Assembly: GCA_038321315.1 (NCBI GenBank)
Contig: JBBQEX010000005.1
Span: forward strand, 100,097 to 164,096
DNA from: Haliangiales bacterium
GTDB taxonomy: Bacteria > Myxococcota_A > Polyangia > Haliangiales > Haliangiaceae
Length of the DNA stretch: 64,000 bases
Direction of reading: 5' to 3'
A program made the translations under genes and the position numbers. Every line of letters starts with the position of its first letter. The first letter of the stretch is position 1. Below, piece by piece: positions 8,919 through 44,400 of the stretch. The notes beneath the pieces were generated by a model. The model did no database searches. It saw only the letters and a program-made list of their open reading frames with translations, and was not told the DNA's origin.

Positions 8919-8944
8919 GCCCCGCGACGGTGTAGGGTGGCGGC

Positions 8945-11751: not shown

Positions 11752-11768
11752 GCTGAGTTAGCATCGCC

Positions 11769-13163
11769 GTGATGCCACGTTACGAATTCGTCGAGGGGAC
11801 GTCGAAGAAGTTCTGGGAGATCGCGGTCGCCGGCAAGGCCGTCACCACGAAGTGGGGACGCCTCGGCACACCCGGGTCGGAGAAGACCAAGGCGTTCGCG
11901 AGCCCGGCCGCGGCGCAGAAGGAGCACGACAAGCTGGTCGCCGAGAAGACCAAGAAGGGTTACGCGGCGGTCGGCGGCAAGCCGGCCAAGGCGAAGGCGG
12001 CCAAGGCGGCCGCGCCGGTTGTTGAGGAGCCGCGCAACGCGGCGCTCGAGAAGGCGATCCGCGACGATCCCGACGACGACGGCGCGTACGGTGTGTACGG
12101 CGACTGGCTCGCGCAGCAGGGCCACCCGCGCGGCGAGCTCGCGACCGCGCAGCTCGCGCGCAACACCGCGGTCGCCAAGAAGCTGCTCGCCAAGCACGCG
12201 GCGCTATGGGGCGAGCTCGCCGGGCTCGAGGACGTCGTCACGAACGTGATCTGGAAGGGCGGGTTCATCGAGCGCGCGCGCGTCGCGAACACGTTCGAGC
12301 GCTCGACGATGCACGGCGGCGAGAAGTCGACGATCGACGTCGCCGACGTGGTCGGCAAGCTGCTGGCCGGGCCGGGGCGGTTCCTCCGCGAGCTCGTCGT
12401 CGGGATCGTCGACTACGAGGGCAACGGCTACCGGGACGTCGTGAAGGCGATCGCGGCCCACAAGTCGGTCCCGACGCTGCGCTCGCTGTACTTCGGCGAC
12501 TTCCACTCCGAGGAGACCGAGCTCAACTGGAGCGCGATCGGCGAGATCACCGAGCTCGGCAAGGCGTGCCCGAACCTCCAGCGCCTGAAGCTGCGCAGCG
12601 GCGGCATGAAGCTCGGCAAGCTCGACTTCCCGAACCTCGTCGGCCTCACGATCTTCAGCGGGGGCCTCGATCCGGCGAGCAGCAAGGCGATCGCCGATGC
12701 GAAGTGGCCGAAGCTCGAGAAGCTCGACCTCATGTTCGGGCGCAAGAGCCACGGCGCGCTCGCGACCGCCAAGCCGCTGCAGGCGCTGTTCGACGCCAGG
12801 TCGGTCCCGCGGCTGACCGCGCTCGGGATCAAGAACTTCGAGTTCCACGCCGAGCTCGTCCCGATGCTGTTGCGCAGCAAGCTGCTCCGCCAGCTCGAGA
12901 CGCTCGATCTGTCGCTCGGCACGATGGGCGACGCCGAGGCCGCGCTGCTGCTCGCGGGCAAGGCGCAGCTCGCGCACCTGAAGAGCCTCGACGTCTCGGA
13001 GAACTTCTTCACCGCGGCCGGGTTGAAGACGCTCAAGCAGATCGGCATCCCGATCGAGACCAAGAGCGGCAACGGGAGCGCGTGGAACAGCAACAAGCTC
13101 GGCCAGCGCGACGACGAGGATCCCGAGGATCCGTCGGATCGTTACGCGTCGATCTACGAGTAG
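11769..13163 (+). CDS. WGR-domain protein with a TIGR02996 repeat-companion motif and a leucine-rich-repeat (RNI-like) C-terminal domain.
   Basis: The N-terminus has KKFWEI...TKWGRLGTPG (WGR domain). Then comes DDPDDDGAYGVYGDWLAQQGHPRGEL, a TIGR02996-type motif. The remaining ~300 aa have regular LxxLxLxxN/G spacing (LQRLKLRSGGMKLGKLDFPNLVGLTIFSGGL...). Confidence 0.6.
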   Translation: MMPRYEFVEGTSKKFWEIAVAGKAVTTKWGRLGTPGSEKTKAFASPAAAQKEHDKLVAEKTKKGYAAVGGKPAKAKAAKAAAPVVEEPRNAALEKAIRDDPDDDGAYGVYGDWLAQQGHPRGELATAQLARNTAVAKKLLAKHAALWGELAGLEDVVTNVIWKGGFIERARVANTFERSTMHGGEKSTIDVADVVGKLLAGPGRFLRELVVGIVDYEGNGYRDVVKAIAAHKSVPTLRSLYFGDFHSEETELNWSAIGEITELGKACPNLQRLKLRSGGMKLGKLDFPNLVGLTIFSGGLDPASSKAIADAKWPKLEKLDLMFGRKSHGALATAKPLQALFDARSVPRLTALGIKNFEFHAELVPMLLRSKLLRQLETLDLSLGTMGDAEAALLLAGKAQLAHLKSLDVSENFFTAAGLKTLKQIGIPIETKSGNGSAWNSNKLGQRDDEDPEDPSDRYASIYE

Positions 13164-13184
13164 AACTACGAGTAAGGTCAGGCG

Positions 13185-13805
13185 ATGAAAGCTGCCGCGC
13201 TCGCCATCCTCCTCGCGTCGTCGTCGCTCGCGCTCGCCGACAAGCCGGCACCCAAGGTCGACGTGATCGCGACCCAGCTCGACGGCCTGAAGACCGCCGC
13301 GAAGTGCGCCGACGCGACGTCGCCGTGGCGACCGTGGTGCATCGCGACGAGGTTCGCGACCGGCACCGTCGCGGATCTGCCGAAGGGCAAGGTCCTCGTC
13401 GGGCTGTCGATCCGGCTCGAGAAGGGCAAGGACCTCGCCGACGCGCTGTCGAATCGGGTGACGCTCGCCGCGCTCGCGATCGACGCCGACGGCAAGGTCA
13501 AGCTGACCGACGTCACGCCGAGCAACGACGGCGAGTCGACGATGATCGGCAAGGCCGTGTTCAACGCGTCGGCGGTGTTCAAGGGCAAGGCGACCTCGAT
13601 CGACGTGCCGAAGGAGCTCGCGGGCTACATCGGGACGCTCAAGGGCGCGTACGCCGCGACCAGGACCGCGACCGAGTGGACGTGGACCGGCAAGTCGGCG
13701 ATGCACCTGCGCAAGGTCGACAAGTTCTGGGTCGCGATCGAGGTGCCCGACGCGCAGGACGGGATCTTCGCGACGATCTTGACCGACGCCTGGGCCGGCA
13801 AGTAG
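13185..13805 (+). CDS. Secreted hypothetical protein.
   Basis: 206-aa ORF with the signal peptide MKAAALAILLASSSLALADKP and typical GC3 bias. Confidence 0.55.
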   Translation: MKAAALAILLASSSLALADKPAPKVDVIATQLDGLKTAAKCADATSPWRPWCIATRFATGTVADLPKGKVLVGLSIRLEKGKDLADALSNRVTLAALAIDADGKVKLTDVTPSNDGESTMIGKAVFNASAVFKGKATSIDVPKELAGYIGTLKGAYAATRTATEWTWTGKSAMHLRKVDKFWVAIEVPDAQDGIFATILTDAWAGK

Positions 13806-13806
13806 C

Positions 13807-15345
13807 TCAGCCTTCGATCACGAAGCGCTCGTGCTCGCTGGCGAGCTCGCGGCCGGTCGGCGACACCACGGCGCGCTCGTCGTCACACGGGATCGCGAGG
13901 TCGTCGATCGCGAGCAGGCCGTCGACGATCGCGAGCTCCTCGGGCGGTAGCTCCCACGTGACGGCGTCGACGATCTCGACGCGCTCGGCGGCGATCGCGA
14001 GCTCGTGCAGCGTTCCGGCGTGCCGCCAGAACAGCCGCGTGCCGTCGGCCGAGAACCCGAGGCGGTCGCTCTCGCGCGCGGGAGCCGCGAGCTCGGCCTC
14101 GAACAGGCGCGCGCCGCTGGCGACGTCGTGAACGACGAGGCCGCCGCGCGACCACACCGCATGGCGCTCGCCGGCCGCGTCGAACGCGACGAGGTCGCCG
14201 TGGCGCGCGCCCCGGCGTCGATCGTCGATCGCGAGCTCGCCGTCGGTGGTCCGCCACGCGCGAAACGCGAACGGCGTGATCTCCATGAACGCGGCATTGC
14301 CGAGGCGCTGGCAGTCGCGCGGCGGACCGCCCTCGAGCCAGCCCGGGCCGTTGACGTCGAGCACCCTGACCACCGCGGGGTCACCGGCGCGCGCGAGGAA
14401 CGGCGCGGTGAACACGTGCGCGCCGTCGGGCGAGAAGGCGATCTTCCGCCACGCACGGCCGCGTGCGGGCATCGCGACCTGCGCGGCGAGCGCGAGGTCC
14501 GGGTCCCACACGCGGATCACGCCGCCGCCGTAGGTGACGATCGCACCATCGGGGGCGATCGCGAGCTCGCCGGGATCGAAGCAACCCCAGCTGCCACCGA
14601 CCGCCCCGGTCTCGACGTCGCGCAGCGAGAGGCCCTCGCTCTCGACGCACACCAGCGCGCCGTCGCGGAGCCCGGCGGTGCCGATCCGGCCCTCGGCGCG
14701 CCAGATCACCCGGCCGCGCGCGGGATCGATCAGGTAGCTCGCGTGGTCGTAGGCGTCGCCGTAGTCGAACGCCTCGGTGATCACGATCGCGAGCTCGGTG
14801 CCGATCGGCACGAGGTGGGTCGCGGCCTCGCCGTCGCCGGTCTCGAGCTCGACCCGGCGGGTGCCGTCGTCGAGCACGGCGCGGCCGTCGCGCGCGGGCA
14901 TGCGCTCGGTGATCAGCCGCCACGGCGATCGCGGTTCGACGACGAGCCCGCGCGGATCGATCGTGCGGCCGGTGCCGCGATCCCACGCGATCGCGCCGGC
15001 GATCCCGATCACGCCGGCGCCGTCGACGTCGCGGACCGCGAGCGACCCGGTCGCGTCGGTGCGGTACTCCTCGACGATGCCGGCGGGCAGGGGCCACGGA
15101 CCACCGAGCGCGCGCAGCCAGCGCTTGCCGGGCGCCCACGCCGCGACCCACGCGTCGATCGGCGCGCGCCGGCGCACGAGACACGGGATCGCGAGCTCCG
15201 GACGCACCGCGGTGAGCGCGAGATCGATCCGGATCAGGCGCGCGAGCTCGCGGCGCGCCGGATCGGCGATCGACCACTCGGCGATCAGCGCCGGCAGCTG
15301 ACCGGCCTCGGCCTCGTCGAGCACGCGCCCGAGCTCTTCGATCAC
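13807..15345 (-). CDS. Hypothetical protein, possibly a beta-propeller, translationally coupled to sthA.
   Basis: 512-aa ORF. Its ATG overlaps the sthA stop (ATGA), so it is the third gene of the HDOD-sthA operon. It has repeated G-x-V/I-x-VWD-like segments. I recognise no family. Confidence 0.5.
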   Translation of the reverse strand: MIEELGRVLDEAEAGQLPALIAEWSIADPARRELARLIRIDLALTAVRPELAIPCLVRRRAPIDAWVAAWAPGKRWLRALGGPWPLPAGIVEEYRTDATGSLAVRDVDGAGVIGIAGAIAWDRGTGRTIDPRGLVVEPRSPWRLITERMPARDGRAVLDDGTRRVELETGDGEAATHLVPIGTELAIVITEAFDYGDAYDHASYLIDPARGRVIWRAEGRIGTAGLRDGALVCVESEGLSLRDVETGAVGGSWGCFDPGELAIAPDGAIVTYGGGVIRVWDPDLALAAQVAMPARGRAWRKIAFSPDGAHVFTAPFLARAGDPAVVRVLDVNGPGWLEGGPPRDCQRLGNAAFMEITPFAFRAWRTTDGELAIDDRRRGARHGDLVAFDAAGERHAVWSRGGLVVHDVASGARLFEAELAAPARESDRLGFSADGTRLFWRHAGTLHELAIAAERVEIVDAVTWELPPEELAIVDGLLAIDDLAIPCDDERAVVSPTGRELASEHERFVIEG

Positions 15346-16730
15346 CCCGCGATCGTGCCACGTCCGCCGCGCTGGCGCAGGACGTCGAGCGCCGCGACGC
15401 GATAGGCCTCGCCGAGCGTCGGGAAGTTGAAGACGTTGTCGACGAACGCGTCGGCCTCCCAGCCGGCGATCATCGCGATCTGACCGACGTGGACCAGCTC
15501 GGCGGCACCCTCACCGACGACGTGGACGCCGAGCACGCGGCGACCCGAGGGATCGCACACCAGCTTCAGGAGGCCATCTTCGATCGCGGAGATCTGCCCG
15601 CGCGCGAGCTCGCCGAACCGCGCGCGTCCGACGACCGCCCCGGGGACCTGCGCCTCGGTCAGGCCGACGCTGGCGAGCTCGGGGATCGCGTAGACGCCAG
15701 CGGGGATCAGCTCGGCCGATGGCGGAACCGGGAGCGCGAGCGCGTGACACGCGGCGCGCCGACCTTGCTCCATCGCGGTCGCCGCGAGCGACGGCGGGCC
15801 GATCACGTCGCCGACCGCGTAGATGTGCGGGACCGCGGTGCGGCCGTGGCGGTCGACCTCGAGGAGGCCGCGCGCGGTCGCGACGAGGCCGGCGGCGTCG
15901 AGCGCGAGCCCGCTCAGGTTGGCCTCGCGGCCGAGGCAATAGAGCAGCTTCTCGGACTCGAGGCGGCGACCGTCGTCGAGCGTGGTGGTCACCGCGACGC
16001 CGTCCCACGCGATCGTGCGCGCGCTGCGGCCGCCGAGGTAGGTGCCGCCCTGGCGGGTGAACGCGCGGACCAGCTCGTCGGTCATCTCCTCGTCGAAGAA
16101 GGCGAGCGGGCGGGGCGAGCGATCGATCATCGTCACGCGCACGCCGAGCGCGGCGAACGTGCACGCGTACTCGGTCGCGATCACGCCGCTGCCGATCACC
16201 GCGAGCGAGCTCGGCAGGTAGGTCAGCGACAGGATCGAGTCGCTGTCGAGCACGTTCTCGTGATCGATCGGCACGTCCGGCGGGTTGCGCGGATGCGAGC
16301 CGGTCGCGATCACGACGTGCGTGCCGGTCGCGGTGCGCCGCGAGCCATCGACGCCGCGGACCTCGACGTCGTGCGGCGAGGTGAACCGCGCGCGGCCGTG
16401 CCAGCGCGCGACGCCGTTGCGATCGAGTTGGTCGGCGATGAACCGCTGGTGCGACGCGATCACGTCGCCGACGCGGGTCATCAGGCTGGCGAGCTTGAGA
16501 TCGGCGGGCGGCTGGACATCGAGGACACCGCCCGACCGCCGGCGCAGGAGGCCGAGCGCGACCGCGGTCTCCCGCAGCGTCTTCGACGGGATCGTGCCGC
16601 GGTGCACGCACGCCCCGCCGGGGTGCGCGCCCTCCTCGATCACGACGACGCGTGCGCCGGCCTTGGCCGCCTGGACCGCGGCCTTCTGGCCGGCCGGGCC
16701 GCTGCCGATCACGACCATGTCGAACTTCAC
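15342..16730 (-). CDS. sthA: Soluble pyridine nucleotide transhydrogenase (flavoprotein disulfide reductase family).
   Basis: 462 aa: [80 protein letters not shown]. These align closely with E. coli SthA ([63 protein letters not shown]). Confidence 0.85.
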   Translation of the reverse strand: [462 protein letters not shown]

Positions 16731-17527
16731 GCGATCGCCTCGAGCGCGACGGTGATGTCGGCCGACTTGCGCGCGAGCGCCTCGACGTCCTCGGGATACA
16801 GGTTGAGCGCGGCGGCGAGCGCGGCGCCCTCGAACGGCTCGCCGTCGAGCGCGTGGGCGAACCGATCGCCGAGCGCGACGGTCAGCGCGAGCTCGTTGTC
16901 GGCGGGCGCGTGGTGCGCGCGGACCGCCTCGGCGACCCGCACCGGCAGCCTCCAGCGCTCGATCAGCGTGCCGCCGAGCTCGGCGTGGACGCGGTCGGCC
17001 TCGGCGAGGATCGCGGCGCGATCCGGCGACACGCGATGTGCGGCGTGAACGTCGAGCAGGACCTGCAGCGCGAGCGGCTTGCCGATGTCGTGGAGCAGCC
17101 CGGCGAGGAACGCGAGATCGACGCCGCTGCGCCGCGCGCGGGCGATCTCCTGCGCGAACAGCGCCGAGGCCAGTGAATGACGGAACGTGGCGCGCACCTC
17201 GGGCTCGAATCCGGCGACCGCGAACACGCGCAGCTTGGTCGCGACGACGAGCGCGATCTGCGTGATCGTCGCGAACCCGAGGCGGCCGATCACCTGCTGG
17301 AGCGACGCGAGCTTGGTCGAGCCGGCATACATCGGCGACGCGGCGACCCGCATGACGTGCGCCGTGAGGCTGGCGTCGCGGCGGATCAGGTCGGCGAGGG
17401 CGCGCGCGTCGCAGTCGGGGCGATCGACGAGCGCGAGCACCTGGGCCGCGACCTCGGGCAACATCGGCAGCGCGAGCTCGCCGGCGGCGACGCGATCGGC
17501 GAACGTCTGTTGCACCGAGGGTTCCAT
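16727..17527 (-). CDS. HDOD-domain protein (HD-related output domain signalling protein).
   Basis: The real start is MEPSVQQTFADRV at about 17527. The LLHDIGKPLAL motif is present. The stop overlaps the sthA start (ATGA). The upstream 190 codons of the 16727..18100 ORF are Arg/Ser-rich run-through. Confidence 0.7.
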   Translation of the reverse strand: MEPSVQQTFADRVAAGELALPMLPEVAAQVLALVDRPDCDARALADLIRRDASLTAHVMRVAASPMYAGSTKLASLQQVIGRLGFATITQIALVVATKLRVFAVAGFEPEVRATFRHSLASALFAQEIARARRSGVDLAFLAGLLHDIGKPLALQVLLDVHAAHRVSPDRAAILAEADRVHAELGGTLIERWRLPVRVAEAVRAHHAPADNELALTVALGDRFAHALDGEPFEGAALAAALNLYPEDVEALARKSADITVALEAIA

Positions 17528-17828
17528 CGCTACCGGATCAATCGACCGCCGCGGCGTGACGTACAGTAGGGCGATGTCAGCTTCGTGGGGCCCGGCGATC
17601 GAGCCGGCGATCGCGGTGATCGAGCGGCTGGTCGCCGAGGAGTGCGGGGGTGCATGAGCTGGCGCTGCACCTGCAGATCGGGCACGACGCCGCGGTGATG
17701 CCCGACGCGATCGCCGGCTGCTTCGAGCTCGCGACCCACGACGGGCCGCTCGCCGGAGCCACCCTGGCGATCGCGATGGTCCCTGGATCGATCCTGACGA
17801 TTCGCCGAAGCACCGCGAACGCGACCCG

Positions 17829-19140
17829 ATGGAGAGCGTGCCGGAGGCCGCGGGCCTGCTCGCCGAGCTGACCGGCATGATGGCGACGAGCGAGAGCGCG
17901 CTGGCGTTCCTCGACGAGCTGGCCACCGCGGTGATGCCGGCGGATCGCCGCGACGTCGAACACCTGACGTGGCGCGAGCGCGGCGCCGCCGACGAGCAGG
18001 CCGCCCGCCTCGATCCGCGCGCGGCCGCCGAGGCCCAGCTGCGTGCCGCCGAACGTCGGTTTCGCGCGCTCGTCGAGCAGATTCCGGCCGTGACGTTCAT
18101 GGCCGTGCTCGGCGAAGCAGCTCCACCTCGAGGACCGCCACCTGTGGAACCTCGAGTTCTCGCGCGGCATCCGCACCGGCGGTTCGTTCAAGGCCGAGTG
18201 CCGGTTCCACGCGCGCGACGGTCACATCGTGTGAGTGCACGGCGAGGCGCGGATCATCAAGGACGAGCAGGGCCGCCCCTCGCTCCTCCAGGGCATCGCG
18301 TTCGACATCACCGAGACCAAGCGCGCGCAGGAGATCGTGCTCGCGAACGCCGTGAGCACCGCGAAGCACGAGGAGGAGCTCGCGATCGCGCACCGCATCC
18401 AGACCCAGATGTTGCCGCGCGAGATCGAGGTCCTCGGGCTCGAGTGCGCGAGCGCGATGCGGCCGGCCGACGATATCGGCGGCGACTACTTCGACGTGCT
18501 GCCGGCCAAGCGTGGCGCGTGGATCGCGATCGGAGACGTCGCCGGACACGGCCTCTCGGCGGGCCTGATCATGCTGCTGCTCCAGTCGGCGGTCGCGTCG
18601 GTGTCGCGCGCGATGCCGAACGCCACGCCCAAGGAGTGATCGCGAACGTCAACGCCGTGCTGTTCGAGTCGATCCGCGATCGGCTCGGCCGCGACGAGCA
18701 CGTGACGTTCTCGCTGTTCCGCTACACCCACGACGGACGCCTCGTGTTCGCCGTCGCCCACGAGGACGTCGTCGTGTATCGCGCGGGCACCGGGCAGGTC
18801 GAGCTCGTGCGACCGACCGGGGTGTGGCTCGGGGCGCGGGCGGAGATCGGGCACCTCACCGAGAACGCCGCGATCCGGCTCCACGACGGCGATGTCGTCG
18901 TGCTCTACACCGATGGGATCACCGAGGCGATGAACGCGGCCGGCGTGCAGTTCGATCTGCCGCGACTCACGAGATCGTGGTCGCCAACGGCACGCCGCCG
19001 CCGCACGAGATCGTCGCCGCGATCCTGGCCGCGGTCTCTGCGTGGATGCACGTGCAGGATGACGATCTCTCGCTCCTCGTGTTCCGCTACACGACGCCGC
19101 CGGGTCGCGAGCGCAATCAGACCTCGCACCGACCGTGAGC
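17829..19140 (+). pseudogene. Disrupted PAS-domain PP2C-type (RsbU/SpoIIE-like) serine phosphatase gene.
   Basis: The reading frame jumps 0 -> 1 -> 0 -> 2. (1) The PAS domain lacks about 25 residues between FMAVLGE and QLHLEDRHLWNLEF. (2) An in-frame TGA at 18232-18234 sits where the conserved PAS Trp belongs (FHARDGHIV*VHGEARIIKDEQGRP...DITETKRAQE). (3) The PP2C core GDVAGHGLSAGLIMLL is in frame 1, and a 1-nt shift near 18640 leads to ...VIANVNAVLFES..FRYTHDGRL..LYTDGITEA. (4) Another 1-nt shift near 18965 precedes HEIVVANG...DDDLSLLVFRYT. Confidence 0.65.
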
Positions 19141-24532: not shown

Positions 24533-26611
24533 TCAGTCGGACACCATGGCTAGGAGATCTCGCACCCGTTGGAGCAAAGAATCCGGCGTCAGCGGCTTCT
24601 GGATCAGCTCGACGCCGGGGTCGAGGATGCCCTGGCTGCCGAGCTCGTCATCCGTGTACCCCGACATGAACAGCACGAGGGACTCGGGGTGGATCTCCTT
24701 CCAGTGGACCGCGAGCTGGGGACCGCCGAGCCGCGGCATGATCACGTCGGTCAGCAGGAGATCGATCGGCAGGTAGATCGTCCGCGCGTCCGCGAGGGCC
24801 TGCTCGCCATCGCTCGCCTCGTGCACGGTGTAGCCGGCACCGCGCAGCACGGTGCAGATCAGCGTGCGCACCTCGTGCTGGTCCTCGACCACGAAGATCC
24901 GAGCGTCGCTCGGGGCCACGACCACCGGCGCCGCACGCGGGGCGATCGGCGCCGCGGGTTTGAGACTGGTCGGCAAGTACACCCGGAACGTGGTGCCGCG
25001 GCCGATGACACTGTCGACCGTGACGTGCCCGCCGCTCTGCTTGCAGATGCCCATCACGGTCGACAGCCCGAGCCCGGTGCCTTTGCCGCGCGGCTTGGTC
25101 GTGAAGAACGGCTCGAACAGGTGAGGATGCGTCTTGGTATCGATCCCGCTGCCGGTGTCGACGACGGCGAGCGTGGTGAACGGTCCCATCGCGAGCCCGA
25201 GCTTGGCGGCGCTCGCCGCGTCGAGCTCGACGCGCGCGGCCTCGAGCGTGAGCACGCCGCCGCGCCCCTCCATCGCGTCGCGCGCGTTGACCACGAGGTT
25301 CATGACGACCTGCTCGATCTGCCCGGCATCGACGATGACGTGGCCGAGCTCTGCCGGCGCGACGATGCGGAGCTCGATGGTCTCGCCGATCAATCGTCGG
25401 ATCATGTCCTCCATCGCGCGCAGCGTCGCGGCGAGATCGATCGCGGTCGGTTCGAGGACCTGCTGGCGCGAGAACGCCAGGAGCTGGCGCGTCAGCTCGG
25501 CGGCGCGATTTCCGGCGCGATCGATCTGGATGACGTCCTGCACCGCGCGGCTCCCGTGCGGCAGCGCGCGCTTGAGGATCGCGGCGTAGCTGAGGATCAC
25601 GGTGAGCAGGTTGTTGAAGTCGTGCGCGACGCCACCGGCGAGGCGGCCGAGCGCCTCCATCCGCTGCGCCTGCCGCAGCTCGGTCTCGAGCCGTTGGGTC
25701 TCGCGCAGGTCGCGCTGCACGGTCGCGAACCCGAGCGGCGTGCCCTCGGAGTCGCGCATGAGGAACGAGCTGATCTGCGTCGGGATCAGCTCGCCGGTCA
25801 CGAAGTGTCGCAGCACGCCCTGACCCTGCCAGCTGCCGCGCTCGCGGATGATGTCGCCGCGGCGGAGGCCATCCTCGGTGTGGAAGTCGGGCAGCGTGAG
25901 GTCGCGGACGTCGCGATCGGGTGGCAGGCCGACGAGCGCGCGGCCCGCCGCGTTGACGAACAGCACGCGCCCGTCGAGCGACGCCATCGCGATCATCTCG
26001 GTGCTGTTCTCGACCAGCGACACGAAGCGCGCGGACTTCTCCTCGGCGCGACGGCGCTCCTCGAGCTCGGCCTGGAGCGAGACCACGAGCTGGGCGTTCG
26101 CGATCGCGAGCGCCGCGTGGTCCGCGAGGCTCCGCGCGAACGCGAGGTCGGCCTCGTCGAACACGCCGCTGTCGGGCGCGTAGCGCATCAACGTGACCGC
26201 GCCGAACCGGCGGCCGCGCGCGTGAAGCGGCACGGCGAGGAAGCTGCGCGGGCGCAGCGCGCAAACGACCGCGGCGAACGGCTGCTCGGCACGTGCGGCG
26301 AGCTCGTCGGGATCGACGTGCAGCATCATGGGGTCGCCGGTGTTCGCGACGCGCGCGGCCAGCCCGACGCCGACCGCCCCGACCTCGACGCGACGGATCG
26401 CTTCGAGCAGGAGCGCGGCCGAAGCCGGATCGCGCGCGGCGGCGGTGCAGTGCTCGGCCCACGCACCCGCGTCATCGACCAGCGCGACCACGCAGCCATC
26501 GCCGATCAGCCGGACGAGCTCGTCGGCGACCGTCGCCAGGAGGCTCGGGTAGTCGGTCGTCGTCTCGGCGAACGCGCGAAACGCCTCGGACAGCGCGAAC
26601 ACCCGATCCAC
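24533..26611 (-). CDS. Hybrid sensor histidine kinase (GAF-PAS-HisKA-HATPase_c-REC).
   Basis: 692 aa. N-terminal GAF-like region, a PAS domain (..VENSTEMIAMASLDGRVLFVNAAG..), the H-box GGVAHDFNNLLTVI, N/G boxes (NLVVNARDAM, DTGSGI, GKGTGLGLS), and a C-terminal receiver (VEDQHEVR..LLLTDVIMP..). Confidence 0.85.
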   Translation of the reverse strand: MDRVFALSEAFRAFAETTTDYPSLLATVADELVRLIGDGCVVALVDDAGAWAEHCTAAARDPASAALLLEAIRRVEVGAVGVGLAARVANTGDPMMLHVDPDELAARAEQPFAAVVCALRPRSFLAVPLHARGRRFGAVTLMRYAPDSGVFDEADLAFARSLADHAALAIANAQLVVSLQAELEERRRAEEKSARFVSLVENSTEMIAMASLDGRVLFVNAAGRALVGLPPDRDVRDLTLPDFHTEDGLRRGDIIRERGSWQGQGVLRHFVTGELIPTQISSFLMRDSEGTPLGFATVQRDLRETQRLETELRQAQRMEALGRLAGGVAHDFNNLLTVILSYAAILKRALPHGSRAVQDVIQIDRAGNRAAELTRQLLAFSRQQVLEPTAIDLAATLRAMEDMIRRLIGETIELRIVAPAELGHVIVDAGQIEQVVMNLVVNARDAMEGRGGVLTLEAARVELDAASAAKLGLAMGPFTTLAVVDTGSGIDTKTHPHLFEPFFTTKPRGKGTGLGLSTVMGICKQSGGHVTVDSVIGRGTTFRVYLPTSLKPAAPIAPRAAPVVVAPSDARIFVVEDQHEVRTLICTVLRGAGYTVHEASDGEQALADARTIYLPIDLLLTDVIMPRLGGPQLAVHWKEIHPESLVLFMSGYTDDELGSQGILDPGVELIQKPLTPDSLLQRVRDLLAMVSD

Positions 26612-26650
26612 AACCTCAGGTTCGCACGGGATCGGCTACGATTTCGTTCC

Positions 26651-26914
26651 ATGCCGCGCTTCATTGTCGTCCACCACGCGCCGGGCGTGACCCCCGAGGA
26701 GTTCCAGAAGAGCGTCCCGGCCGTGCTCGAGGGCAAGTTCGCGAAGTTCGTGCAGTGCTACGCCAACATGGTCGATGGTCTGATCATCAACCTGTACGAC
26801 GGCGACGACGCCGAGGCGGTCGGTCGCGAGCTCGAGCGCATCGGGTTTCCGTACGACGAGATCAAGCCACTCCAGTTCGCCGCGTCGTTCGACGAGCTGT
26901 CTGCGATGCCGTGA
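26651..26914 (+). CDS. DUF4242-family small protein (SCO4226-like).
   Basis: MPRFIVVHHAPGVTPEEFQKSVPAVLEG..VQCYANMVDGLIINLYDGDDAEAV; compare the DUF4242 pattern MPKFMDVHHGPGVTPEEV... It is the last part of the 24569..26914 ORF frame, and its stop overlaps the next start (TGATG). Confidence 0.5.
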   Translation: MPRFIVVHHAPGVTPEEFQKSVPAVLEGKFAKFVQCYANMVDGLIINLYDGDDAEAVGRELERIGFPYDEIKPLQFAASFDELSAMP

Positions 26915-27561
26915 TGTGGTTCGACGAGCCGCCGGCGAAGCAGCCGCTGAAGGTCAACGTGTTCGCGCACGCGATGGCGCATCAGGGGATGCTCCAACAG
27001 GCGCCGCTGTTCCCGTACGTCGGCCCTGGCGACCTCGTGCCGACCGCGGCGCTGTCGCTCACGCTGCCCGACACGCCGCGCGTGCACTTCTATCACCACA
27101 ACGACGTCACCGAGGTCATCCTCTGCATGGCGAGCGAGGGCGGCACGATCGCGACGGGGCAGCTCTATCTCCAGCAGGGCACCCACGGGGTGACGACGTT
27201 CCTGCGCGAGCCGACCGGCCCCGAGGCGAAGCACTACCAGCTCTCGCTGATCACCTTTCGCATGCGCGAGGTCGGGCCGCAGATGGAGGGCTTCATCCTG
27301 CGCTGCCACGGCTGCAACGCGATCGTGTTCCGCATGGATCGCGACATCTGGCAGCCCGCGTCGCGCGCGCACTATCCCGAGCTCGCGAACCTGCGGTTCT
27401 ACGCCGATGCCGCCGATGCCTACAACGCGATCCCGCGAACGTGCGAGGCGTGCGCGCTGGCGCAGCTGCCGTTCCCCTCGGAGCTGATGGGCTGGCGGCG
27501 CTACGTGCAGTACGTCGAGCTCGCGAATCGCGCGCAGACCGATCTGCTCGAGGCGGGCTGA
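26914..27561 (+). CDS. 3-hydroxyanthranilate 3,4-dioxygenase (HAO)-like cupin protein, paralogue 1.
   Basis: 215 aa: MWFDEPPAKQPLKVNVF..HFYHHNDVTEVILCMASEGGTI..LITFRMREVGPQMEGFILRCHGCNAIVF...RTCEACA. This is a cupin fold with a C-terminal CxxC...CxxC rubredoxin-like pair, as in bacterial HAO. The start overlaps the DUF4242 stop. Confidence 0.45.
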   Translation: MWFDEPPAKQPLKVNVFAHAMAHQGMLQQAPLFPYVGPGDLVPTAALSLTLPDTPRVHFYHHNDVTEVILCMASEGGTIATGQLYLQQGTHGVTTFLREPTGPEAKHYQLSLITFRMREVGPQMEGFILRCHGCNAIVFRMDRDIWQPASRAHYPELANLRFYADAADAYNAIPRTCEACALAQLPFPSELMGWRRYVQYVELANRAQTDLLEAG

Positions 27562-28103
27562 TGCTGGAACGCAAGAAGACGCTGAACGTGTTCAAGGACG
27601 CCAAGCACGCGTTCGGCTCGTACGACGACTTTCCGGTCGGCCCGCCGGGTACCGATCCGATGCCGCACCTGTCGCGCAACCGCTGCGATCAGCCGTTCTT
27701 CCTGATCGCCGAGCGCGACCAGGTGCTCGTACAGATGGCCGGCCGCGCGACGCTGCGCTTCCAGGGCGCACCGGCGGTCGCGCTCGCCCCCGGCGACACC
27801 GTGTACCTGCCGGCGCGGATGCCGAGCCGGATCTTCCCCGACGGCGAGTGCGTGCAGCTCCGGCTCAAGGCCGAGCCCGGCGGCAAGGAAGCGATCGCCT
27901 GGTACTGCGAGCCGTGCGGCACGCTGCTGCACGCGATCGAGATCGCGCCGGGCGTCGTCCAGGCCGCGTACCTCGCCGGTGTGCACGCGTTCAACGCGAG
28001 CCCACGGCGCTGCCAGGACTGCGGCCTCGAGCATCCGCGGGTCGAGCTCGGCGACATCGCGTGGGACGCGGTCGCTACGGCGCTTTGCACGCCGGCGGGA
28101 TGA
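27561..28103 (+). CDS. HAO-like cupin protein, paralogue 2.
   Basis: 180 aa: MLERKKTLNVFKDAKHAFGSYDD..LSRNRCDQPFFLIAERDQVLVQMAG..GDTVYLPARMPSRIF..IAWYCEPCGTLLH...RRCQDCG. This matches the HAO pattern (..gemFLLP..vpHSP.R...WyCe.C... plus a distal CxxC). TGATG overlap with paralogue 1. Confidence 0.45.
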   Translation: MLERKKTLNVFKDAKHAFGSYDDFPVGPPGTDPMPHLSRNRCDQPFFLIAERDQVLVQMAGRATLRFQGAPAVALAPGDTVYLPARMPSRIFPDGECVQLRLKAEPGGKEAIAWYCEPCGTLLHAIEIAPGVVQAAYLAGVHAFNASPRRCQDCGLEHPRVELGDIAWDAVATALCTPAG

Positions 28104-29015
28104 TCGCCTTCACCGCGCCGGTCTTGCGATCGAGCACGCCAACGCGGCCCGCCTCGGTGACGTAGACCAGCGTATCGCCGTGCGCCGCGAAGCCGGCCGC
28201 CGCGGCGTAGTCGCCCGCCCGCGTGAGCGGCGCGAGCTCGAACTTCATGACGCGCTTCGCGGTCGCGAGGTCGACGACGATCAACAGCGGGGCGTCGAGC
28301 TGCTTGAACGCCCACTGCGAGCCGTCGACCGGCCAGGTATCGACCGTGTTCTGCGTGAAGTCCGGGAGCGCGACCGGCCCGATCAGCTTGCCGGCGCGCG
28401 TGTAGATCCGCCCGCCATCGGAGACCGGCGACGCGTGGCCCCACACGATCAGGCGATCGTCGCCGGCGAACGTCGGCAGGTCGAGCGGCGATGGATCGCC
28501 CATGTCGGTCTTCCAGCCCTTCAGCGTCACGATCCGCTTGCCGGTCGCGCCGTCGTAGAGCCCGATCGCGGTGCCGCTGGATTCCTGGTGCGCGAGGAGC
28601 TTGCCGTCGTCGCTGACCGCGACGTCGCCGTCCTTGAACGGCGGCTTCGGGTGCACCTCGGTGCAGCTTGGCTTCGTGCTCGGCGGGCACAGCTTGACCG
28701 AGCCGTCGGGCGAGACGGTCGCGGCCGGCGGCGAGTCGGTGGCAGGGAGTGCGGGCGTGGTCGGGATCGCGGCGACGGTGCCGGCCGCGAGGTCGACCTT
28801 CCAGCACGTGCGGGCCTCGGTGGTGCAGTACGTCACCGCGTCGGGGCCGATCTTCACGTCGCCGATCGTCGCGTCGGCGGGAAGGCAGCTGGCGAGCGCG
28901 GCGTCGGCGGGCACGGCGGCGTCGGCGACGACCGGCTTCTCGGGCACCAGCTCGACCACCTTCTCCGGCTTGTCCTTCGTGTTGCAGCTCGCGAGCGCGA
29001 TCACGAATCCGAGAG
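28075..29015 (-). CDS. Lipoprotein of unknown function (third gene of the MVP-kinase operon).
   Basis: The real start is MRMALGFVIALASCNTKDK (lipobox LASC) at about 29015. 313 aa with conserved Cys pairs and beta-rich sequence. It lies 20 nt downstream of the kinase gene. Confidence 0.55.
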
Positions 29016-29035
29016 CCATGCGCATCGCGGCTAAC

Positions 29036-30739
<1,704 letters not shown>

Positions 30740-30748: not shown

Positions 30749-33253
30749 TCACTCCTTCGGAATGACGAGCTTGTCGACCAGCGACTTCAGCGGGGTGTTG
30801 TGGAACAGCCGGTTGAGGGTGTCGCCGATCGACTCGCCCTCGATGACGCGCTGCACCCCCCACGCCTGGGCGACCTTGACGAGCGTCTCGTCACGGCCGA
30901 GCGAGATGAGCGCCTCGCTGAAGTTGCCCGATGCCGCGGTGAACCGCGCAACCGCCGTCTCGGCCTCCGCGCGCAGGAGCTCGATGTGCTCGTCCTGCTC
31001 GCGGGCCAGGAACGCGAGCTCCTGGTCCTTCTCCTTCTTCACGCGCTCGAGGCGCATCTGCTGCTTGTAGCTGTCGACCACCTGCTCGGCCTCGATCACC
31101 TTCTTCTTCTCGTCGGTCTCCTTCAGCGAGTTCGCGATCCGCGCGAGTGCGGTCGCAAGCTCGCTCGTCGCGACCTCGCGGGCCAGCTCGTCCTGCCGCA
31201 TCTTGGTCTGCGCCTTGACCTCGGCCGTCTCGCGACTGATCACCTCGCGCTGGCGGGTGACCGCCAGCTCGCGCGTCAGGTTCGAGAGGTCGATGTTCGA
31301 GCGCACGACGTCGTGCTGCTGGGCGTCGAGCAGGGCGCGGATCTTGTCGTCCTGCAGCACGACCTTCAGCACGTCGACGTCGACGATCCGCATGCCGTTC
31401 GCGGTGAACGCCATGCCGGTGCGCTTGCCCTCGCTCGACTTGCCGAGGATCGCGTCGCGCACTCGATCGGTCGAGTTCGCGTAGAGATCTTCGACCGCGA
31501 GCTTGCGCAGCTGACCCTTCAACACCGAGCGCACGTGATCGCACATCAGCTTCACGTAGTTCTCGACGGCGAACCACCGGAGCGGATCACCCTCGAAGTC
31601 CACCCGGTACGACAGCTGGATCTGCACGTGCACGTGATCCATCGTCTCGACGGTCACGAGGTCCGACACCTGGTTGTTCTCGACGCGCAGGTACGGGGTC
31701 TCGAGCAGCTTGTCGATCGACTTCGGCGTGCCGGTCGACAGCGTCAGCGCCTCGATGCCCTCGTCGTAGTCGAGGAGCAGCGTGGTCGGTCCGACCTCGA
31801 CGCGGCGGCGACCGGTCTTGGCGGTGACGAGCACGGCGTAGCCGGTCCACACCGTGACCTGCGGCGCGCCCTGGTACTTGTTGTCGAGCGTCACCGTGCG
31901 CGGCTGCGTGTAGGTCGAGGCGCGCGAGAACTCGTCGGAGATCAGCGCCTGATCGCCGCTCACGCGACTCGCCTCCATCACCATGCCCGGCGTGCCCGGC
32001 TTCTGCACCCGCTTGCCACCGCGCTCGATGTCACCCTCCGACAAGACGCCATGGCGCGTCGTCGGCACGTTATGGATCAACGTGCGCACGCTCTGGTTGT
32101 AGCCGAGCGCCTCGGTGTTACCCGGGTACCACAGCGCGCACTCGCGATCCGACAGCACGCGGCGCACGATCACCTCGGAGCGCGGGTCCGGCAGCAACAT
32201 CGCCGGGCCACGCACCGTGCGGATCGCACCGGTGAGGCGGTTCATCACGTAGCGCGCCTCGCCGGCCGGGATGGCCGTCGCGAAGTGCTTCGCCTTGCCG
32301 TCGTACTTGATCGCCGAGTGCTCCTCGCGCGGAAAGTAGATCGCGGTGTCCTTGCCGGTGATGAACAGCTCGTCACCGGCGCGATGCACCGCACCGTTCT
32401 CGGTGTAGTCCGCGATCACCTTGATGTGGAGCCCCTGGATCTCGTTGAGCTCGACCGCGCGGAACTTCTTGCTCGCGCGACCACCGTCGTCACGCGCCTC
32501 GACGAACCGCTCCGTCGGCAACGGGAACACGACCTGCGGGCCGATCTCGTAGCGCTTCTTGCCGTTCTCGTCGACGAGGATCGCGTACTCGAGGCGCTCG
32601 AGCGTCAGCGCCTCGCGGGCGTACGCATCGCCGTCGCGCACGACCTCGATGCCGGTCGGCGGGATGTAGAACGACACCTCGGTGCCGCGGATGATCAGCT
32701 GCTTGCCGACGATGAGATCCGGCGGCGGCGTCGCGACGGACGCGACCTCGGCGTCGGTGCCGGCCGGCTTGACGACGGCCTTGCTCCAGTTCTTGCGCGC
32801 CTCGTCCTCGTTGTAGACGCGGACGAGCAGGTACTGGTTCGAGCGCAGGTGGTGGCCCTCGACGACCTCGGCCGCCTGGCCCGGCCACAGCGCGAACGTC
32901 GCCGGGCCCGGCACGATGATCGTGCGACCGATCTCGAGCTCGGCGCTCGGCTGCGCGCTGCCCTCGTCCGGGTGCTTGTTGGCCTTCGCCGGGTTGCGCA
33001 GGATGATGTAGAAGCCCTCGGCGGCGATCGGAGAGATCCGCATCGCCTCCTCGAGTGCATTGACGCCGCGGAACGTGTTCGACGCCGCGTCGTAGGTGAC
33101 GGACCGCTCCTGGGCCGTCGGGTTGATCACCGTCGGACCGCTGTACGTCTTGACGACACCCTTGGTGACGTCCTGCATGTACGCGTAGCTGCCCGGCGGC
33201 AACACGAGGTCGCGCTTCTGGATCTCGCTCATGATGTTGCTCGCTCCCTTCAT
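30749..33253 (-). CDS. Major vault protein (MVP) homologue: MVP repeat domains, an SPFH/shoulder domain and a cap-helix coiled coil.
   Basis: 834 aa. The N-terminus LVLPPGSYAYMQDVTKGVVKTYSGPTVINPTAQERSV parallels human MVP [38 protein letters not shown]. Shoulder: LVTVETMDHVHVQIQLSYRVDFEG versus [24 protein letters not shown]. A long C-terminal coiled coil follows (RETAEVKAQTKMRQDELAREVATSELATALARIANSLKE...). Confidence 0.8.
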   Translation of the reverse strand: MKGASNIMSEIQKRDLVLPPGSYAYMQDVTKGVVKTYSGPTVINPTAQERSVTYDAASNTFRGVNALEEAMRISPIAAEGFYIILRNPAKANKHPDEGSAQPSAELEIGRTIIVPGPATFALWPGQAAEVVEGHHLRSNQYLLVRVYNEDEARKNWSKAVVKPAGTDAEVASVATPPPDLIVGKQLIIRGTEVSFYIPPTGIEVVRDGDAYAREALTLERLEYAILVDENGKKRYEIGPQVVFPLPTERFVEARDDGGRASKKFRAVELNEIQGLHIKVIADYTENGAVHRAGDELFITGKDTAIYFPREEHSAIKYDGKAKHFATAIPAGEARYVMNRLTGAIRTVRGPAMLLPDPRSEVIVRRVLSDRECALWYPGNTEALGYNQSVRTLIHNVPTTRHGVLSEGDIERGGKRVQKPGTPGMVMEASRVSGDQALISDEFSRASTYTQPRTVTLDNKYQGAPQVTVWTGYAVLVTAKTGRRRVEVGPTTLLLDYDEGIEALTLSTGTPKSIDKLLETPYLRVENNQVSDLVTVETMDHVHVQIQLSYRVDFEGDPLRWFAVENYVKLMCDHVRSVLKGQLRKLAVEDLYANSTDRVRDAILGKSSEGKRTGMAFTANGMRIVDVDVLKVVLQDDKIRALLDAQQHDVVRSNIDLSNLTRELAVTRQREVISRETAEVKAQTKMRQDELAREVATSELATALARIANSLKETDEKKKVIEAEQVVDSYKQQMRLERVKKEKDQELAFLAREQDEHIELLRAEAETAVARFTAASGNFSEALISLGRDETLVKVAQAWGVQRVIEGESIGDTLNRLFHNTPLKSLVDKLVIPKE

Positions 33254-41465: not shown

Positions 41466-44400
41466 TTGATCTGGATGTCGACGCCACGAAGCCTGGCGTT
41501 TGCCCCGGCTCTGCCCGAGCAGCACTTCACCGGCAGTGGTCGGTTCGAGCTGCGCCGCGTCCTTGGCGAAGGCTCGATGGGCATCGTCTACGAGGCGTTC
41601 GACCACGAGCGCAACATGGTCGTCGCGTTGAAGACGGTGCGGCGGCTCGATGCCCAGGCGCTGTACCGGCTGAAGACCGAGTTCCGCGTTCGCGTCGATC
41701 TCGAGCACCGCAACCTCGTGCGGCTCGGCGAGTTGCTGCACGACGACGGCGACTGGTTCTTCACGATGGAGCTCGTCGAGGGGTGGCCGTTCCTCGAATG
41801 GGTGCGCGCCGGCTCCGGCGACGCCGAGGATCACGGCACGCCCGACAGTCGCCTGCGCGACGCGATCCGCCAGCTGTCGGCGGGCCTCGAGGTCCTGCAT
41901 CGCGCCGGCAACGTGCACCGCGATCTCAAGCCGTCGAACATCCTCGTCACGCGCAAGGGCCGCGTCGTCGTGCTCGACTTCGGGCTCGTCGGCGAGGCCG
42001 CGCCGGACCGCCGGAGCGCGGGGCTCGACGTCGTCGGCACCGCCGCGTACATGGCGCCCGAACAGGCGCGATCGTCGTCGGTCGGGCCGCCCGCCGACCT
42101 CTACTCGATGGGCGTCATGATGTACGAGGCGATCGGTGGTCGCCTGCCGTTCGATGGCCAACCGCTCGAGATCCTGACGCGCAAGCAGAACGAGGATCCG
42201 TTGCCGCCGCTCGTCGGCGTCGCGCCGACCGAGCTGTCGACGCTGTGCATGGAGTTGCTGCGCCGCCGCCCGCAGGATCGACCGACCACGACGGCGATCA
42301 TCGCGCGGCTCTCGCAGCGCGCGGTCACCGAGTCGGAGAAGCCGCCGCCGTTCGTCGGTCGGTCACCCGAGCTCGCGCGCCTCGATGCCGCGCTCGATCA
42401 GGTCACCAACGGGCAGGCGAGCACGGTGTTCGTCGAGGGCGAGTCCGGCATCGGCAAGACCGCGCTCGTCCGCAGCTTCGTCGATCGCGTTCACGAGCAA
42501 CGCCCCGGCGTGCTCGCACTCTACGGTCGCTGCTACGAGCGCGAGTCGGTGCCGTTCAAGGGCCTCGACAACGTGGTCGACGCGCTCGCGCACGACCTCA
42601 TGCGCCGCCACCCGGTCGACGTCGCGCTTCACATGAGCAACGACATCGACGCGCTCGCCCGCGTGTTCCCGGTGCTGCGTCGCGTGCCAGCGATCGCCCG
42701 GCTCACGGTGCCGCGCCCGGCATCGCCCGTCGAGCTGCGGGCGCGCGCGTTTCGCGGGCTGCGCGCGCTGCTCGCGTCGCTCGCGACCACGCAGACGATC
42801 GTCGTCGTGATCGACGACCTCCAGTGGGCCGACTCCGACTCGATCGCGTTGCTCCGCGAGATCCTGCACCCGCCGAACGCGCCGCGGATCCTGCTCATCA
42901 TCACGCGCCGGGGCGATGCCGGCCCGCGGCCCGAGCTGCCGGGCTCGGTCGAGGCGATCCCGATCGGCCGCCTGTCGGTGGAGGAGGGCCGCGAGCTGAT
43001 CAACCTGCTGACGCCGGGTCGCTCGGATGCCGACGCGCTGGTCGCCGACGCCGACGGCCACCCGATGTTCATGCACGAGCTCGTGCGCCACTCGGGCACG
43101 CCGCTCGCGGCCTCGCGGTTCGACAACGCGCTGTGGGCGCGCATCACGCGCATGGAGCACCGCGCGCGTCGCGTGCTCGAGCTGATCTCGGTCGCCGGCG
43201 CGCCGTTGCCGCAGGGCGTGATCGGGCAGGCCCTCGAGCTTTCGCCGCGCCGGCTCACCAAGGTGCTCGACACGCTGCGCTCGACGTCGCTCGTGCGCAC
43301 CGGCGGTACGCGCAGCAACGATCCGGTCGAGCCGTACCACGACCGCGTCCGCGAGGCGGTGGTCGCGCGCGTGCCCGAGCCACGCCGCCGCCGCTATCAC
43401 CAGCGACTCGCGACCGTGTTGCTCAGCAGCACGAGCTCGAACAAGGATCCGCTCACGATCGTCCGCCACGTCGAGGCGGCCGGCGATGCGAACCACGCCG
43501 GCGAGCTCGCGATCCAGGCCGCGCGGCGGGCCGAGGAGGCGCTCGCGTTCGAGCTCGTCGCCGCGTTGCTCGAGGTCGCGCTCCGGCTGGCGACGCTCGA
43601 CGCCGAGACCCGACGCGAGCTGCTGCTGCGGCGCGCGCAGGCCCTCAGCTACGCCGGTCGCGGCCCCGAGTCGGCCACCGCGTTCCTCGCCGCGGCCGCG
43701 GGCGCCGACGGCGAGACCGGCTTTCAGTGCCGGCGCAAGGCGGCCCACGAGCTGCTCGTCAGCGGGCACATCCACGATGGCCTCGCGCTCCTCCGCTCGG
43801 TGCTCGCCGAGATCGGCGAGGATCTCCCTCGCTCGACCGGCGCGGCGAAGCGCCAGCTGGTGTGGCGCTGGATCAAGATCGCCATCCGCGGCACGCGGTT
43901 CCAGACCCGCACGCTCGATGTCAAGGCGAGCATGGACGAGCTCCGGCTCGACGTGATGCGCAGCGCGTCGCTCGGGCTGTCGATGGTCGACGTGCTGCCG
44001 GGCGCGGCGTTCCAGGCGGGCGCGGTGCTCGTCGCGCTCCGGCTCGGTGATCGCCATCGCGTCGCGTACGCGCTGTGCTTCCACGCGATGTACGTCGCGG
44101 CGAGCGGGACCCGCGTGCGCGCGGCACGGGCGTTCGTCGCGCAGGCGCGCGGCCTCGCGCACGAGCTCGACAACCCGCTGCTGCTCGGCTGGACGCGCGC
44201 GGGCGAGGGCATCATCGAGTTCTTCGCCGGCCACTACGTCGCCGCGCTCGCGACGCTCGACGAGGCCGAGACGTACCTCAGCGAGCAGACCGTGGGCAGC
44301 TCCGCAGAGCTCAACCACATCCGCAACTTCATGATGTTCGCGTTGCGGCGCATGGGGAACTACGACGAGCTGCGCGCTCGCCTGGTCGACTACGTGCGCG

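Follow-up and report, generated by a model that had tools for sequence, protein, structure and literature searches.

What do three small, overlapping genes make when two of their products carry the scaffold of 3-hydroxyanthranilate 3,4-dioxygenase (HAO) and no other kynurenine-pathway gene stands beside them? In the present study, this question was asked of genes A, B and C, which lie at positions 26651-28103 of a 64,000-nucleotide stretch from a Haliangiales bacterium (GenBank assembly GCA_038321315.1, contig JBBQEX010000005.1, positions 100,097 to 164,096 of the forward strand); this whole stretch is called the window here. HAO is a textbook non-haem-iron dioxygenase, and the bacterial enzyme is a homodimer; what the second, rubredoxin-like iron site of HAO does is still debated, one proposal being an iron reservoir. 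An earlier note on the same DNA had suggested that B and C form a heteromeric ring-cleaving, or else non-catalytic regulatory, cupin complex acting on an aminophenol. On balance, and with some reserve, we lean towards reading A-B-C from its sequence as the operon of a heteromeric non-haem-iron oxygenase, in which B would be the catalytic subunit, C its degenerate partner and A an accessory protein, and which would depend on an electron donor.

Gene organization

The G+C content of the window is 70%, and the region 26651-28103 holds three open reading frames (ORFs) on the same strand with high third-position G+C. The features are as follows.

26651..26914, + strand: gene A, 87 amino acids, DUF4242/SCO4226-like small alpha+beta protein, probably an accessory subunit
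26914..27561, + strand: gene B, 215 amino acids, HAO-fold cupin with retained metal triad, putative catalytic subunit
27561..28103, + strand: gene C, 180 amino acids, degenerate HAO-like paralogue that has no iron triad and keeps the four-cysteine (Cys4) site
26912..26916, + strand: A/B stop/start overlap TGATG, read directly from the sequence
27559..27563, + strand: B/C stop/start overlap TGATG, read directly from the sequence

At both junctions of these small genes the TGA stop and the next ATG have one base (A) in common, just as the earlier note had read them. Stop/start overlaps of one or four bases (ATGA, GTGA, TAATG, GTGATG) are common among 30 related loci, and the overlaps seen here are ordinary operon coupling and no rarity.

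Family, fold and putative metal sites of B and C

Gene B matches no Pfam or NCBIfam family. Alone it gave no direct sequence match to HAO, and a profile built from its close homologues found only weak Ada zinc-finger noise in PDB; B is linked to HAO solely at the level of profile and fold. A diverse B profile finds HAO by sequence at E 4e-4, and hhalign compared the B profile with HAO at 96% probability; the HAO queries used in hhalign agree with PDB 1yfu over residues 60-170. The AlphaFold2 (AF2) model of B made from 59 diverse relatives reached a predicted local distance difference test score (pLDDT) of 93.9 and a predicted template modelling score (pTM) of 0.88, and the model made from only 26 close homologues gave a pLDDT of 55, with the N-terminal half <50. 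B has the three-dimensional fold of HAO, which is the nearest solved structure to B and C, and it is longer than HAO by ~40 residues, including a long C-terminal helix.

The product of gene C stands nearer to HAO by sequence. HAO chains are its only significant PDB sequence matches (1yfu, E 1.4e-6 with the single sequence and 4.6e-7 with a profile), hhalign against HAO gave 97.8% probability, and tblastn with the authentic Pseudonocardia HAO matches C genes. The B and C families were compared by hhalign with 97% probability and E 1e-10 over 150 columns. Their paralogy needed this profile comparison because BLASTP of B against C gave only a 20-residue match around the second CxxC. Thus the divergent paralogues of HAO-type cupin plus rubredoxin-like architecture that the earlier note had described are borne out, and Pfam, profile and fold comparison agree on its picture of a DUF4242 gene beside two HAO-like cupins with CxxC...CxxC.

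The residues of B that correspond to the metal sites of HAO are encoded as follows.

27094..27186, + strand: codons of the putative iron ligands of B, His61 at 27094-27096, Glu67 at 27112-27114 and His91 at 27184-27186
27304..27453, + strand: codons of the Cys4 (rubredoxin-like) residues C131, C134, C177 and C180 of B, assigned by invariance and by alignment to the HAO CxxC...CxxC

In hhalign, His61 of B falls on HAO His51 and Glu67 on Glu57 with identical H-x5-E spacing, and a transitive alignment from B through C to HAO gives the same assignment. His91 lies on the strand after the cupin Gly82 motif in the AF2 model, and we infer it to be the third iron ligand from its invariance and its strand position. 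The conservation was examined in 70 full-length diverse B-like proteins of 23-50% identity, where H61, N63, E67, C131, C134, C177 and C180 are invariant in 70/70 and H91 is kept in 69/70; R116, Q123 and E125 are nearly invariant.

The 2-His-1-Glu site of HAO (His51/Glu57/His95 in Cupriavidus numbering) is absent from C, in which these positions hold Leu48, Gln54 and, depending on the alignment, Ser89 or a gap. Moreover, no His occurs in C between residues 37 and 123, a stretch that spans the whole barrel, and this holds whatever the alignment. Among 20 diverse C-like proteins, the His51 position is Leu in 19 and the Glu57 position is Thr, Gln or Cys in at least 15 (the three commonest residues tallied), while at the His95 position 13 have His and the other seven, which include the clade of the window, have Ser or Thr. 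Beyond that clade, most C-like proteins retain this single His within 'PAGTPHR'. The Cys4 residues C116, C119, C151 and C154 of C are aligned to the CxxC motifs of HAO and are invariant in its own clade, and a C-like Cys4 is absent from about one quarter of diverse C-like proteins. Since S38, D53, Y82, R90, R101, Q134 and W168 are invariant in all 20, C is, by this residue pattern, a catalytically degenerate protein family-wide, yet a strongly constrained one. The earlier note was right that B and C differ in their putative metal ligands, B having them and C not.

Relation to authentic HAO

Neither B nor C matches PF06052 at E up to 1, and both stay below the HAO family score cut-offs; C scored 35.3 bits (E 1e-8) against NCBIfam PRK13264, where the cut-off is 220, and 29.4 bits against TIGR03037, where it is 145.95. 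Assignment to HAO by family model, which the earlier note had left to be checked, failed for both proteins. The substrate residues of HAO have changed as well. Where HAO has Glu110, B carries Phe115 or Arg116 (the family consensus being Gln or Arg) and C carries Arg101 or Lys103, equivalents of HAO Arg47 and Arg99 are not kept across the B family, and Arg90 of C may match Arg99 in one alignment only. Because Glu110 and the carboxylate-binding arginines are not kept, the substrate should not be 3-hydroxyanthranilate (3-HAA). The context of a kynurenine/2-aminomuconate pathway is also missing, as neither the 64-kb window nor the myxobacterial loci gave a homologue of ACMSD, of the RidA-type deaminase or of the FAH family, and the earlier remark that no other kynurenine-pathway genes flank the locus is upheld. 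What B and C do share with HAO is the fold and the distal Cys4 rubredoxin-like site of the bacterial and yeast enzymes. Overall, B and C are not members of the HAO family, given their scores, their substrate residues and the pathway context in the window. Their homologues are labelled in the databases as 'hypothetical protein', as '3-hydroxyanthranilate 3,4-dioxygenase' (JGI, UniRef) or as 'mannose-6-phosphate isomerase-like', and the latter two labels are wrongly given and amount to misannotation.

Conservation of the triad and gene fusions

The order and strand of A-B-C are kept in 30/30 related loci of species-representative genomes (28 Myxococcota, 2 Actinobacteria), so the search for orthologous triads that the earlier note had proposed returned the triad intact throughout. 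The closest homologues are in metagenome-assembled genomes of Kofleriaceae and Polyangia (Myxococcota). The triad is also present in the cultured Pseudonocardia alaniniphila and P. yunnanensis, and the idea that the actinobacterial loci are binning errors was rejected on this ground. In one distant locus (L043) the order is C-A-B.

Run against 1.8 billion representatives, the B profile picked out 162 relatives (counted as representatives at 50% identity) spanning Myxococcota, Actinobacteria, Alphaproteobacteria, Burkholderiales, Chloroflexota and Binatia. In some of these, one polypeptide chain carries both domains, the C-like one ahead of the B-like one. When a profile of the fusion was used, 103 proteins were found, mostly in Alphaproteobacteria (Stellaceae, Rhodospirillaceae, Rhizobiales, Beijerinckia), Burkholderiales and Binatia, and a C-terminal Rieske [2Fe-2S] domain is present in 30 of the 103. 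In two of the C-B(-Rieske) fusions (P0334, P0339) and related ones, the C-like domain has no Cys4 of its own ('WYSPKTGEE', 'RTSKVTGQV') and the B-like Cys4 is invariant.

Among the loci examined, L035 is the only one in which no C-like gene was detected beside B; in all the others B and C occur together. Because C-B fusions exist in other lineages, which is classic evidence of this kind, B and C are expected to act as one complex, and this pattern argues strongly for a B/C heteromer with B as the predicted active subunit. The searches of the literature on DUF4242, on SCO4226 and on HAO/rubredoxin/cupin/paralog returned no paper on the B/C family. The B/C relatives are a sizeable sister family of HAO for which neither Pfam nor NCBIfam has a model.

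Gene A

Gene A passes the Pfam model PF14026 (DUF4242/SCO4226-like) narrowly, with E 2.4e-7 and 31.3 bits against a cut-off of 28.5, and its residues 3-75 align end to end with residues 10-86 of the chain in PDB 4oi3 (SCO4226) at E 5.5e-4. It lies directly upstream of B in all 30 loci, with 52-80% identity. A-like genes adjoin B/C also in L043, in Pseudonocardia and in L037, where the A-like gene is 1.4 kb from a C-B fusion gene. The NCBIfam equivalog of nickel-binding SCO4226 (NF033706) is failed with 25.8 bits against a cut-off of 125. The Ni-1 ligands of SCO4226 are Asp43, Ser46 and His76 (PMC4186839), and in the alignment to 4oi3 they correspond to Asn39, Asp42 and Lys72 of A. The nickel ligands are kept only in Streptomyces, and they form surface sites with low-affinity binding (PMC4186839). 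On these scores and residues, A is placed as a member of Pfam DUF4242 outside the SCO4226 nickel-binding equivalog. Nickel binding as the primary function of A was considered and rejected, the Ni-1 ligands not being kept and the equivalog score having failed.

Neighbours of B and C in distant relatives

Five kinds of redox partner stand beside B/C homologues or are fused to them, namely a fused Rieske domain, a free Rieske ferredoxin, a Fer4 ferredoxin, a thioredoxin-like 2Fe-2S protein, and a flavodoxin with a ferredoxin-reductase-like gene. In Beijerinckia and Rhizobiales (L032, L038) the C-B fusion is followed by a free Rieske ferredoxin of 110 amino acids. In Pseudonocardia A-B-C is followed by a Fer4 ferredoxin, a CobW GTPase, an Amidohydro_3 gene and a LysR gene, and the set lies downstream of P450-ferredoxin-reductase genes and is convergent with a canonical ACMSD / PF06052-HAO / RidA / FAH / ALDH cluster, whose separate canonical HAO is 5.7 kb from the triad. 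We observed that in L039-L042 (P. alaniniphila, P. yunnanensis; ~8700-13400 and 14400-18700) the triad set lies tail to tail with a complete 3-HAA meta-cleavage cluster, and that a true HAO and the HAO-like pair are present in one genome. On two other actinobacterial contigs A-B-C is followed by Amidohydro_3.

Elsewhere the surroundings differ in detail. In L044/L045 a ferredoxin-reductase-like gene, B, C, a dienelactone hydrolase and a flavodoxin are found, with a glyoxalase-type dioxygenase, FAH-family genes and a flavin-dependent (FAD) monooxygenase in the vicinity. A Pyr_redox_2 gene stands beside B/C in L037, and the Chloroflexota contig L046 carries B and C near RidA, ACMSD-like and LigB-type genes. 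In L035 (7561-9205) an ABM (dimeric alpha+beta barrel) protein, a B-like gene, a Cys-motif protein of 126 amino acids and a nitroreductase are found; by eye, the 126-residue protein resembles a thioredoxin-like 2Fe-2S ferredoxin. The ABM protein occupies there the place that DUF4242 has in the window.

A further partner, an NMT1_3-like (TAXI/SBP-fold) protein of ~325 amino acids, is encoded beside B/C or C-B fusions in seven non-myxobacterial loci of different phyla.

L031, 12723-13688: NMT1_3-like gene
L032, 9701-10696: NMT1_3-like gene
L036, 5353-6387, - strand: NMT1_3-like gene
L037, 14366-15290, - strand: NMT1_3-like gene
L038, 8696-9685: NMT1_3-like gene
L044, 1135-2100: NMT1_3-like gene
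L046, 7563-8537: NMT1_3-like gene

The proteins of L031, L032, L036, L037 and L038 are 50-55% identical to that of L046. They have no N-terminal signal peptide and share a conserved 'GDWG.ANLHRV' start, and, judged by its sequence, the protein resembles a partner working in the cytoplasm more than it does part of a transporter.

Neighbours in the window and in myxobacterial loci

Within ~10 kb of the triad, the window encodes a hybrid histidine kinase, a protein without Pfam match, a Ser/Thr kinase, a vault-protein-like gene and, identified by eye, a ribonucleotide reductase-like gene. None of the Rieske, Fer4, NMT1_3-like, Amidohydro_3, CobW or meta-cleavage genes was found in the window or in the myxobacterial loci. 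The kinase upstream of gene A is the following.

24533..26611, - strand: GAF-PAS-HisKA-HATPase-REC hybrid histidine kinase, divergent from A, assigned from Pfam domains

In 15/31 loci the triad has a hybrid PAS histidine kinase as its neighbour, in one of two arrangements: upstream and divergent in Kofleriaceae, or downstream and in the same direction in three Polyangia loci. The sensor domains are not the same in the two kinase types (GAF-PAS versus multiple PAS). Ser/Thr kinases are also frequent neighbours. The adjacency is only weakly significant because myxobacterial genomes are rich in kinases, and it is suggestive at best of a regulatory neighbour of the triad.

Some side observations were made on the same region. 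The annotated start codons of the kinase (GTG 26611, - strand) and of gene A (ATG 26651) are separated by only 39 bp (26612-26650), which leaves very little room for two promoters; the kinase may begin further in than annotated, or the two genes may have regulatory DNA in common. At the other end, gene C and a convergent ORF of 364 amino acids (28075-29169, - strand) share 29 nt (28075-28103) at their 3' ends; this ORF has no Pfam match and an N-terminus of lipoprotein-like appearance. Farther along, an ORF of 567 amino acids (29036-30739, - strand) clusters with Ser/Thr kinases by BLAST, and the protein of 834 amino acids at 30749-33253 (- strand), which adjoins a Ser/Thr kinase gene, carries MVP_shoulder (E 8e-25) and Vault_3 domains and is a bacterial homologue of the eukaryotic major vault protein. 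The window also holds a Ser/Thr kinase of 1195 amino acids with an AAA_16 domain (41466-45053, + strand), a WGR-domain protein (11769-13163, + strand) and an ORF of 1933 amino acids (1283-7084, - strand), and its density of signalling genes is typically myxobacterial.

Discussion

The enzyme that we favour would be built on the HAO scaffold, in which a rubredoxin-like Cys4 knuckle stands C-terminal to a cupin barrel. B would be catalytic through the His61/Glu67/His91 facial triad and would carry a Cys4 centre in addition. As the bacterial HAO is a homodimer, it offers a template for a B/C heterodimer, and C most likely pairs with B like the two HAO protomers, serving as a structural, substrate-binding or regulatory partner. 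A would be a cofactor-less DUF4242-type alpha+beta protein, co-produced with B and C as an accessory or effector subunit. An external ferredoxin or flavodoxin would supply electrons to the catalytic iron, probably by way of the Cys4 centre, and the reaction would be of monooxygenase type, for instance the hydroxylation of an aromatic amino or hydroxy acid; no cleavage of 3-hydroxyanthranilate is expected. Control of the operon may lie with the hybrid histidine kinase next to it.

The need for an external electron donor is suggested, with moderate confidence, by the five kinds of redox partner that B/C relatives have recruited independently, one of them fused and one a pair of reductase and flavodoxin. 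Since separate ring-cleaving dioxygenases and aminophenol meta-cleavage genes are repeatedly close by, B/C would act ahead of ring opening, for instance by hydroxylating an aromatic amine or acid; it may stand upstream of an aminophenol/3-HAA meta-cleavage pathway and not at its ring-cleaving step. The earlier proposals fare unevenly here. The heteromeric complex gains from the natural C-B fusions and from the pairing of B and C in all loci but L035, but self-sufficient ring cleavage loses ground with the recurrence of electron-transfer partners. The non-catalytic option suits C, which has lost the iron ligands. An aminophenol substrate receives indirect support from the meta-cleavage genes beside the triad in Pseudonocardia and near B/C in the Chloroflexota contig.

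Several points weigh against this interpretation. No ferredoxin, reductase, NMT1_3-like partner or catabolic neighbour is present in the window or in any of the 28 myxobacterial loci, and the electron donor was deduced from distant relatives at 25-50% identity, from which the clade of the window may differ. Small ferredoxins accompany ordinary extradiol dioxygenases too, where they only re-reduce oxidised iron (XylT-type), and the Cys4 site could bind structural zinc instead. The heteromer draws on fusions and synteny, not on structure. Finally, the alignment over His51/Glu57/His95 that the earlier note had called for succeeded in part: in hhalign His61 and Glu67 of B fall into place, but His91 is 2-4 residues off HAO His95, and C, with Leu48, Gln54 and Ser89 or a gap, dropped out altogether.

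Among the other explanations, the main rival is a self-sufficient extradiol-type dioxygenase that cleaves the ring of o-aminophenol or a related compound, with an active and a degenerate subunit as in AmnAB/LigAB; the redox partners of the relatives would then only re-reduce Fe(III), as XylT does for catechol 2,3-dioxygenase. We regard it as rather unlikely. A separate dioxygenase is already encoded near B/C in Pseudonocardia (PF06052 HAO), in L046 (LigB-type) and in L044 (glyoxalase-type), the HAO substrate contacts Glu110, Arg47 and Arg99 are not kept, and the fused Rieske domain (30/103) and the flanking reductase/flavodoxin have the layout of a stoichiometric electron chain, not of occasional repair. 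The remaining readings are less likely than this one. The hybrid PAS histidine kinase beside the triad in 15/31 loci, the frequent Ser/Thr kinases and the absence of flanking metabolic genes in myxobacteria would suit a non-enzymatic sensor, in which an A/B/C complex perceives O2, redox state, iron or a ligand through Fe and Cys4 and signals to the hybrid kinase. We find this improbable, because in genomes so crowded with kinases two independent adjacencies are weakly significant, the sensor domains of the kinases differ, members outside the myxobacteria stand in catabolic clusters without kinases, and the strict invariance of a catalytic-type triad together with N63, R116, Q123 and E125 fits an enzyme.

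A role in metal handling, that is, storage or delivery of nickel, iron or zinc with A binding nickel and B and C acting as Cys4/His-rich carriers, would draw on the rubredoxin-like site of HAO as a proposed iron reservoir and on the CobW-type metallochaperone GTPase of the Pseudonocardia operon; the family of A is also named after nickel-binding SCO4226 (PMC4186839). It is very improbable given that the Ni-1 ligands are not kept in A, that the equivalog score is 25.8 against 125 and that the fusion and ferredoxin contexts favour catalysis. Hardly credible is the reading of B and/or C as a genuine 3-hydroxyanthranilate 3,4-dioxygenase of tryptophan/NAD metabolism: the source labels of many homologues say so and HAO is the nearest solved structure, but the scores are far under the curated cut-offs, there is no match to PF06052, C is without iron ligands, Glu110 is replaced in both proteins, Pseudonocardia has a separate canonical HAO, and kynurenine-pathway genes are absent from the window.

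The heteromeric, donor-dependent oxygenase is thus the reading that we carry further. In it, the HAO scaffold is a two-subunit or fused enzyme with one dead subunit that is repeatedly tied to ferredoxins and Rieske domains. It is a tentative suggestion, held as possible rather than probable, that the B/C relatives form an unrecognised class of multicomponent oxygenases, in which electrons from a ferredoxin, a Rieske domain or a flavodoxin would pass through Cys4 into the HAO-fold cupin B, accompanied by the dead paralogue C and the DUF4242 effector A. An example would be an arylamine/anthranilate ortho-hydroxylase that makes the o-aminophenol (for example 3-hydroxyanthranilate) for the neighbouring meta-cleavage genes in Pseudonocardia and Chloroflexota. 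If it is true that Cys4 is an electron entry port, this would explain the rubredoxin-like site of the HAO type and add a type of multicomponent oxygenase to aromatic-amine catabolism. In practical terms, annotations can be corrected, and Minicystis rosea DSM 24000, Pseudonocardia alaniniphila, P. yunnanensis and Beijerinckia are tractable hosts. The finding overturns no paradigm; the metalloenzyme system is clearly delimited, widely distributed and open to testing, and it has a bearing on the rubredoxin-like site of the HAO type.

Comparison with known systems

SCO4226 of Streptomyces coelicolor (DUF4242, PF14026; PDB 4oi3) is like A in length and aligns with it from end to end, but its nickel ligands are not kept in A, and A always has B and C encoded beside it, while the work on SCO4226 dealt with that protein on its own (PMC4186839). 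HAO itself (NbaC/Bna1; PF06052, TIGR03037; PDB 1yfu, 5v26, 1zvf) has the same single cupin barrel followed by a CxxC...CxxC rubredoxin-like site, and B retains a His and a Glu at His51/Glu57 with equal H-x5-E spacing. In contrast to HAO, to which the identity is 12-16% and whose family cut-offs lie far above the scores, the present system has two distinct subunits, one of them without the iron triad, and an obligatory DUF4242 operon partner, and B/C relatives have redox-partner genes or fused Rieske domains.

In AmnAB (2-aminophenol 1,6-dioxygenase) and LigAB-type enzymes, a catalytic subunit is joined to a paralogous subunit without metal ligands, and the genes are linked to those of aminophenol meta-cleavage. 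The logic of one active and one degenerate subunit is the same as in B/C, but the fold is unrelated (LigB type, not cupin), and these enzymes have no Cys4, no DUF4242 partner and no fused ferredoxin. HppE is a 2-His-1-Glu cupin that can need external electrons, as proposed here for B. The gene layout of B/C relatives, with a Rieske, a Fer4, or a flavodoxin plus ferredoxin-reductase-like partner, is like that of three-component oxygenases; unlike in those systems, the catalytic subunit would be an HAO-fold cupin with its own Cys4 and not a Rieske alpha subunit, and the window itself carries no partner genes.

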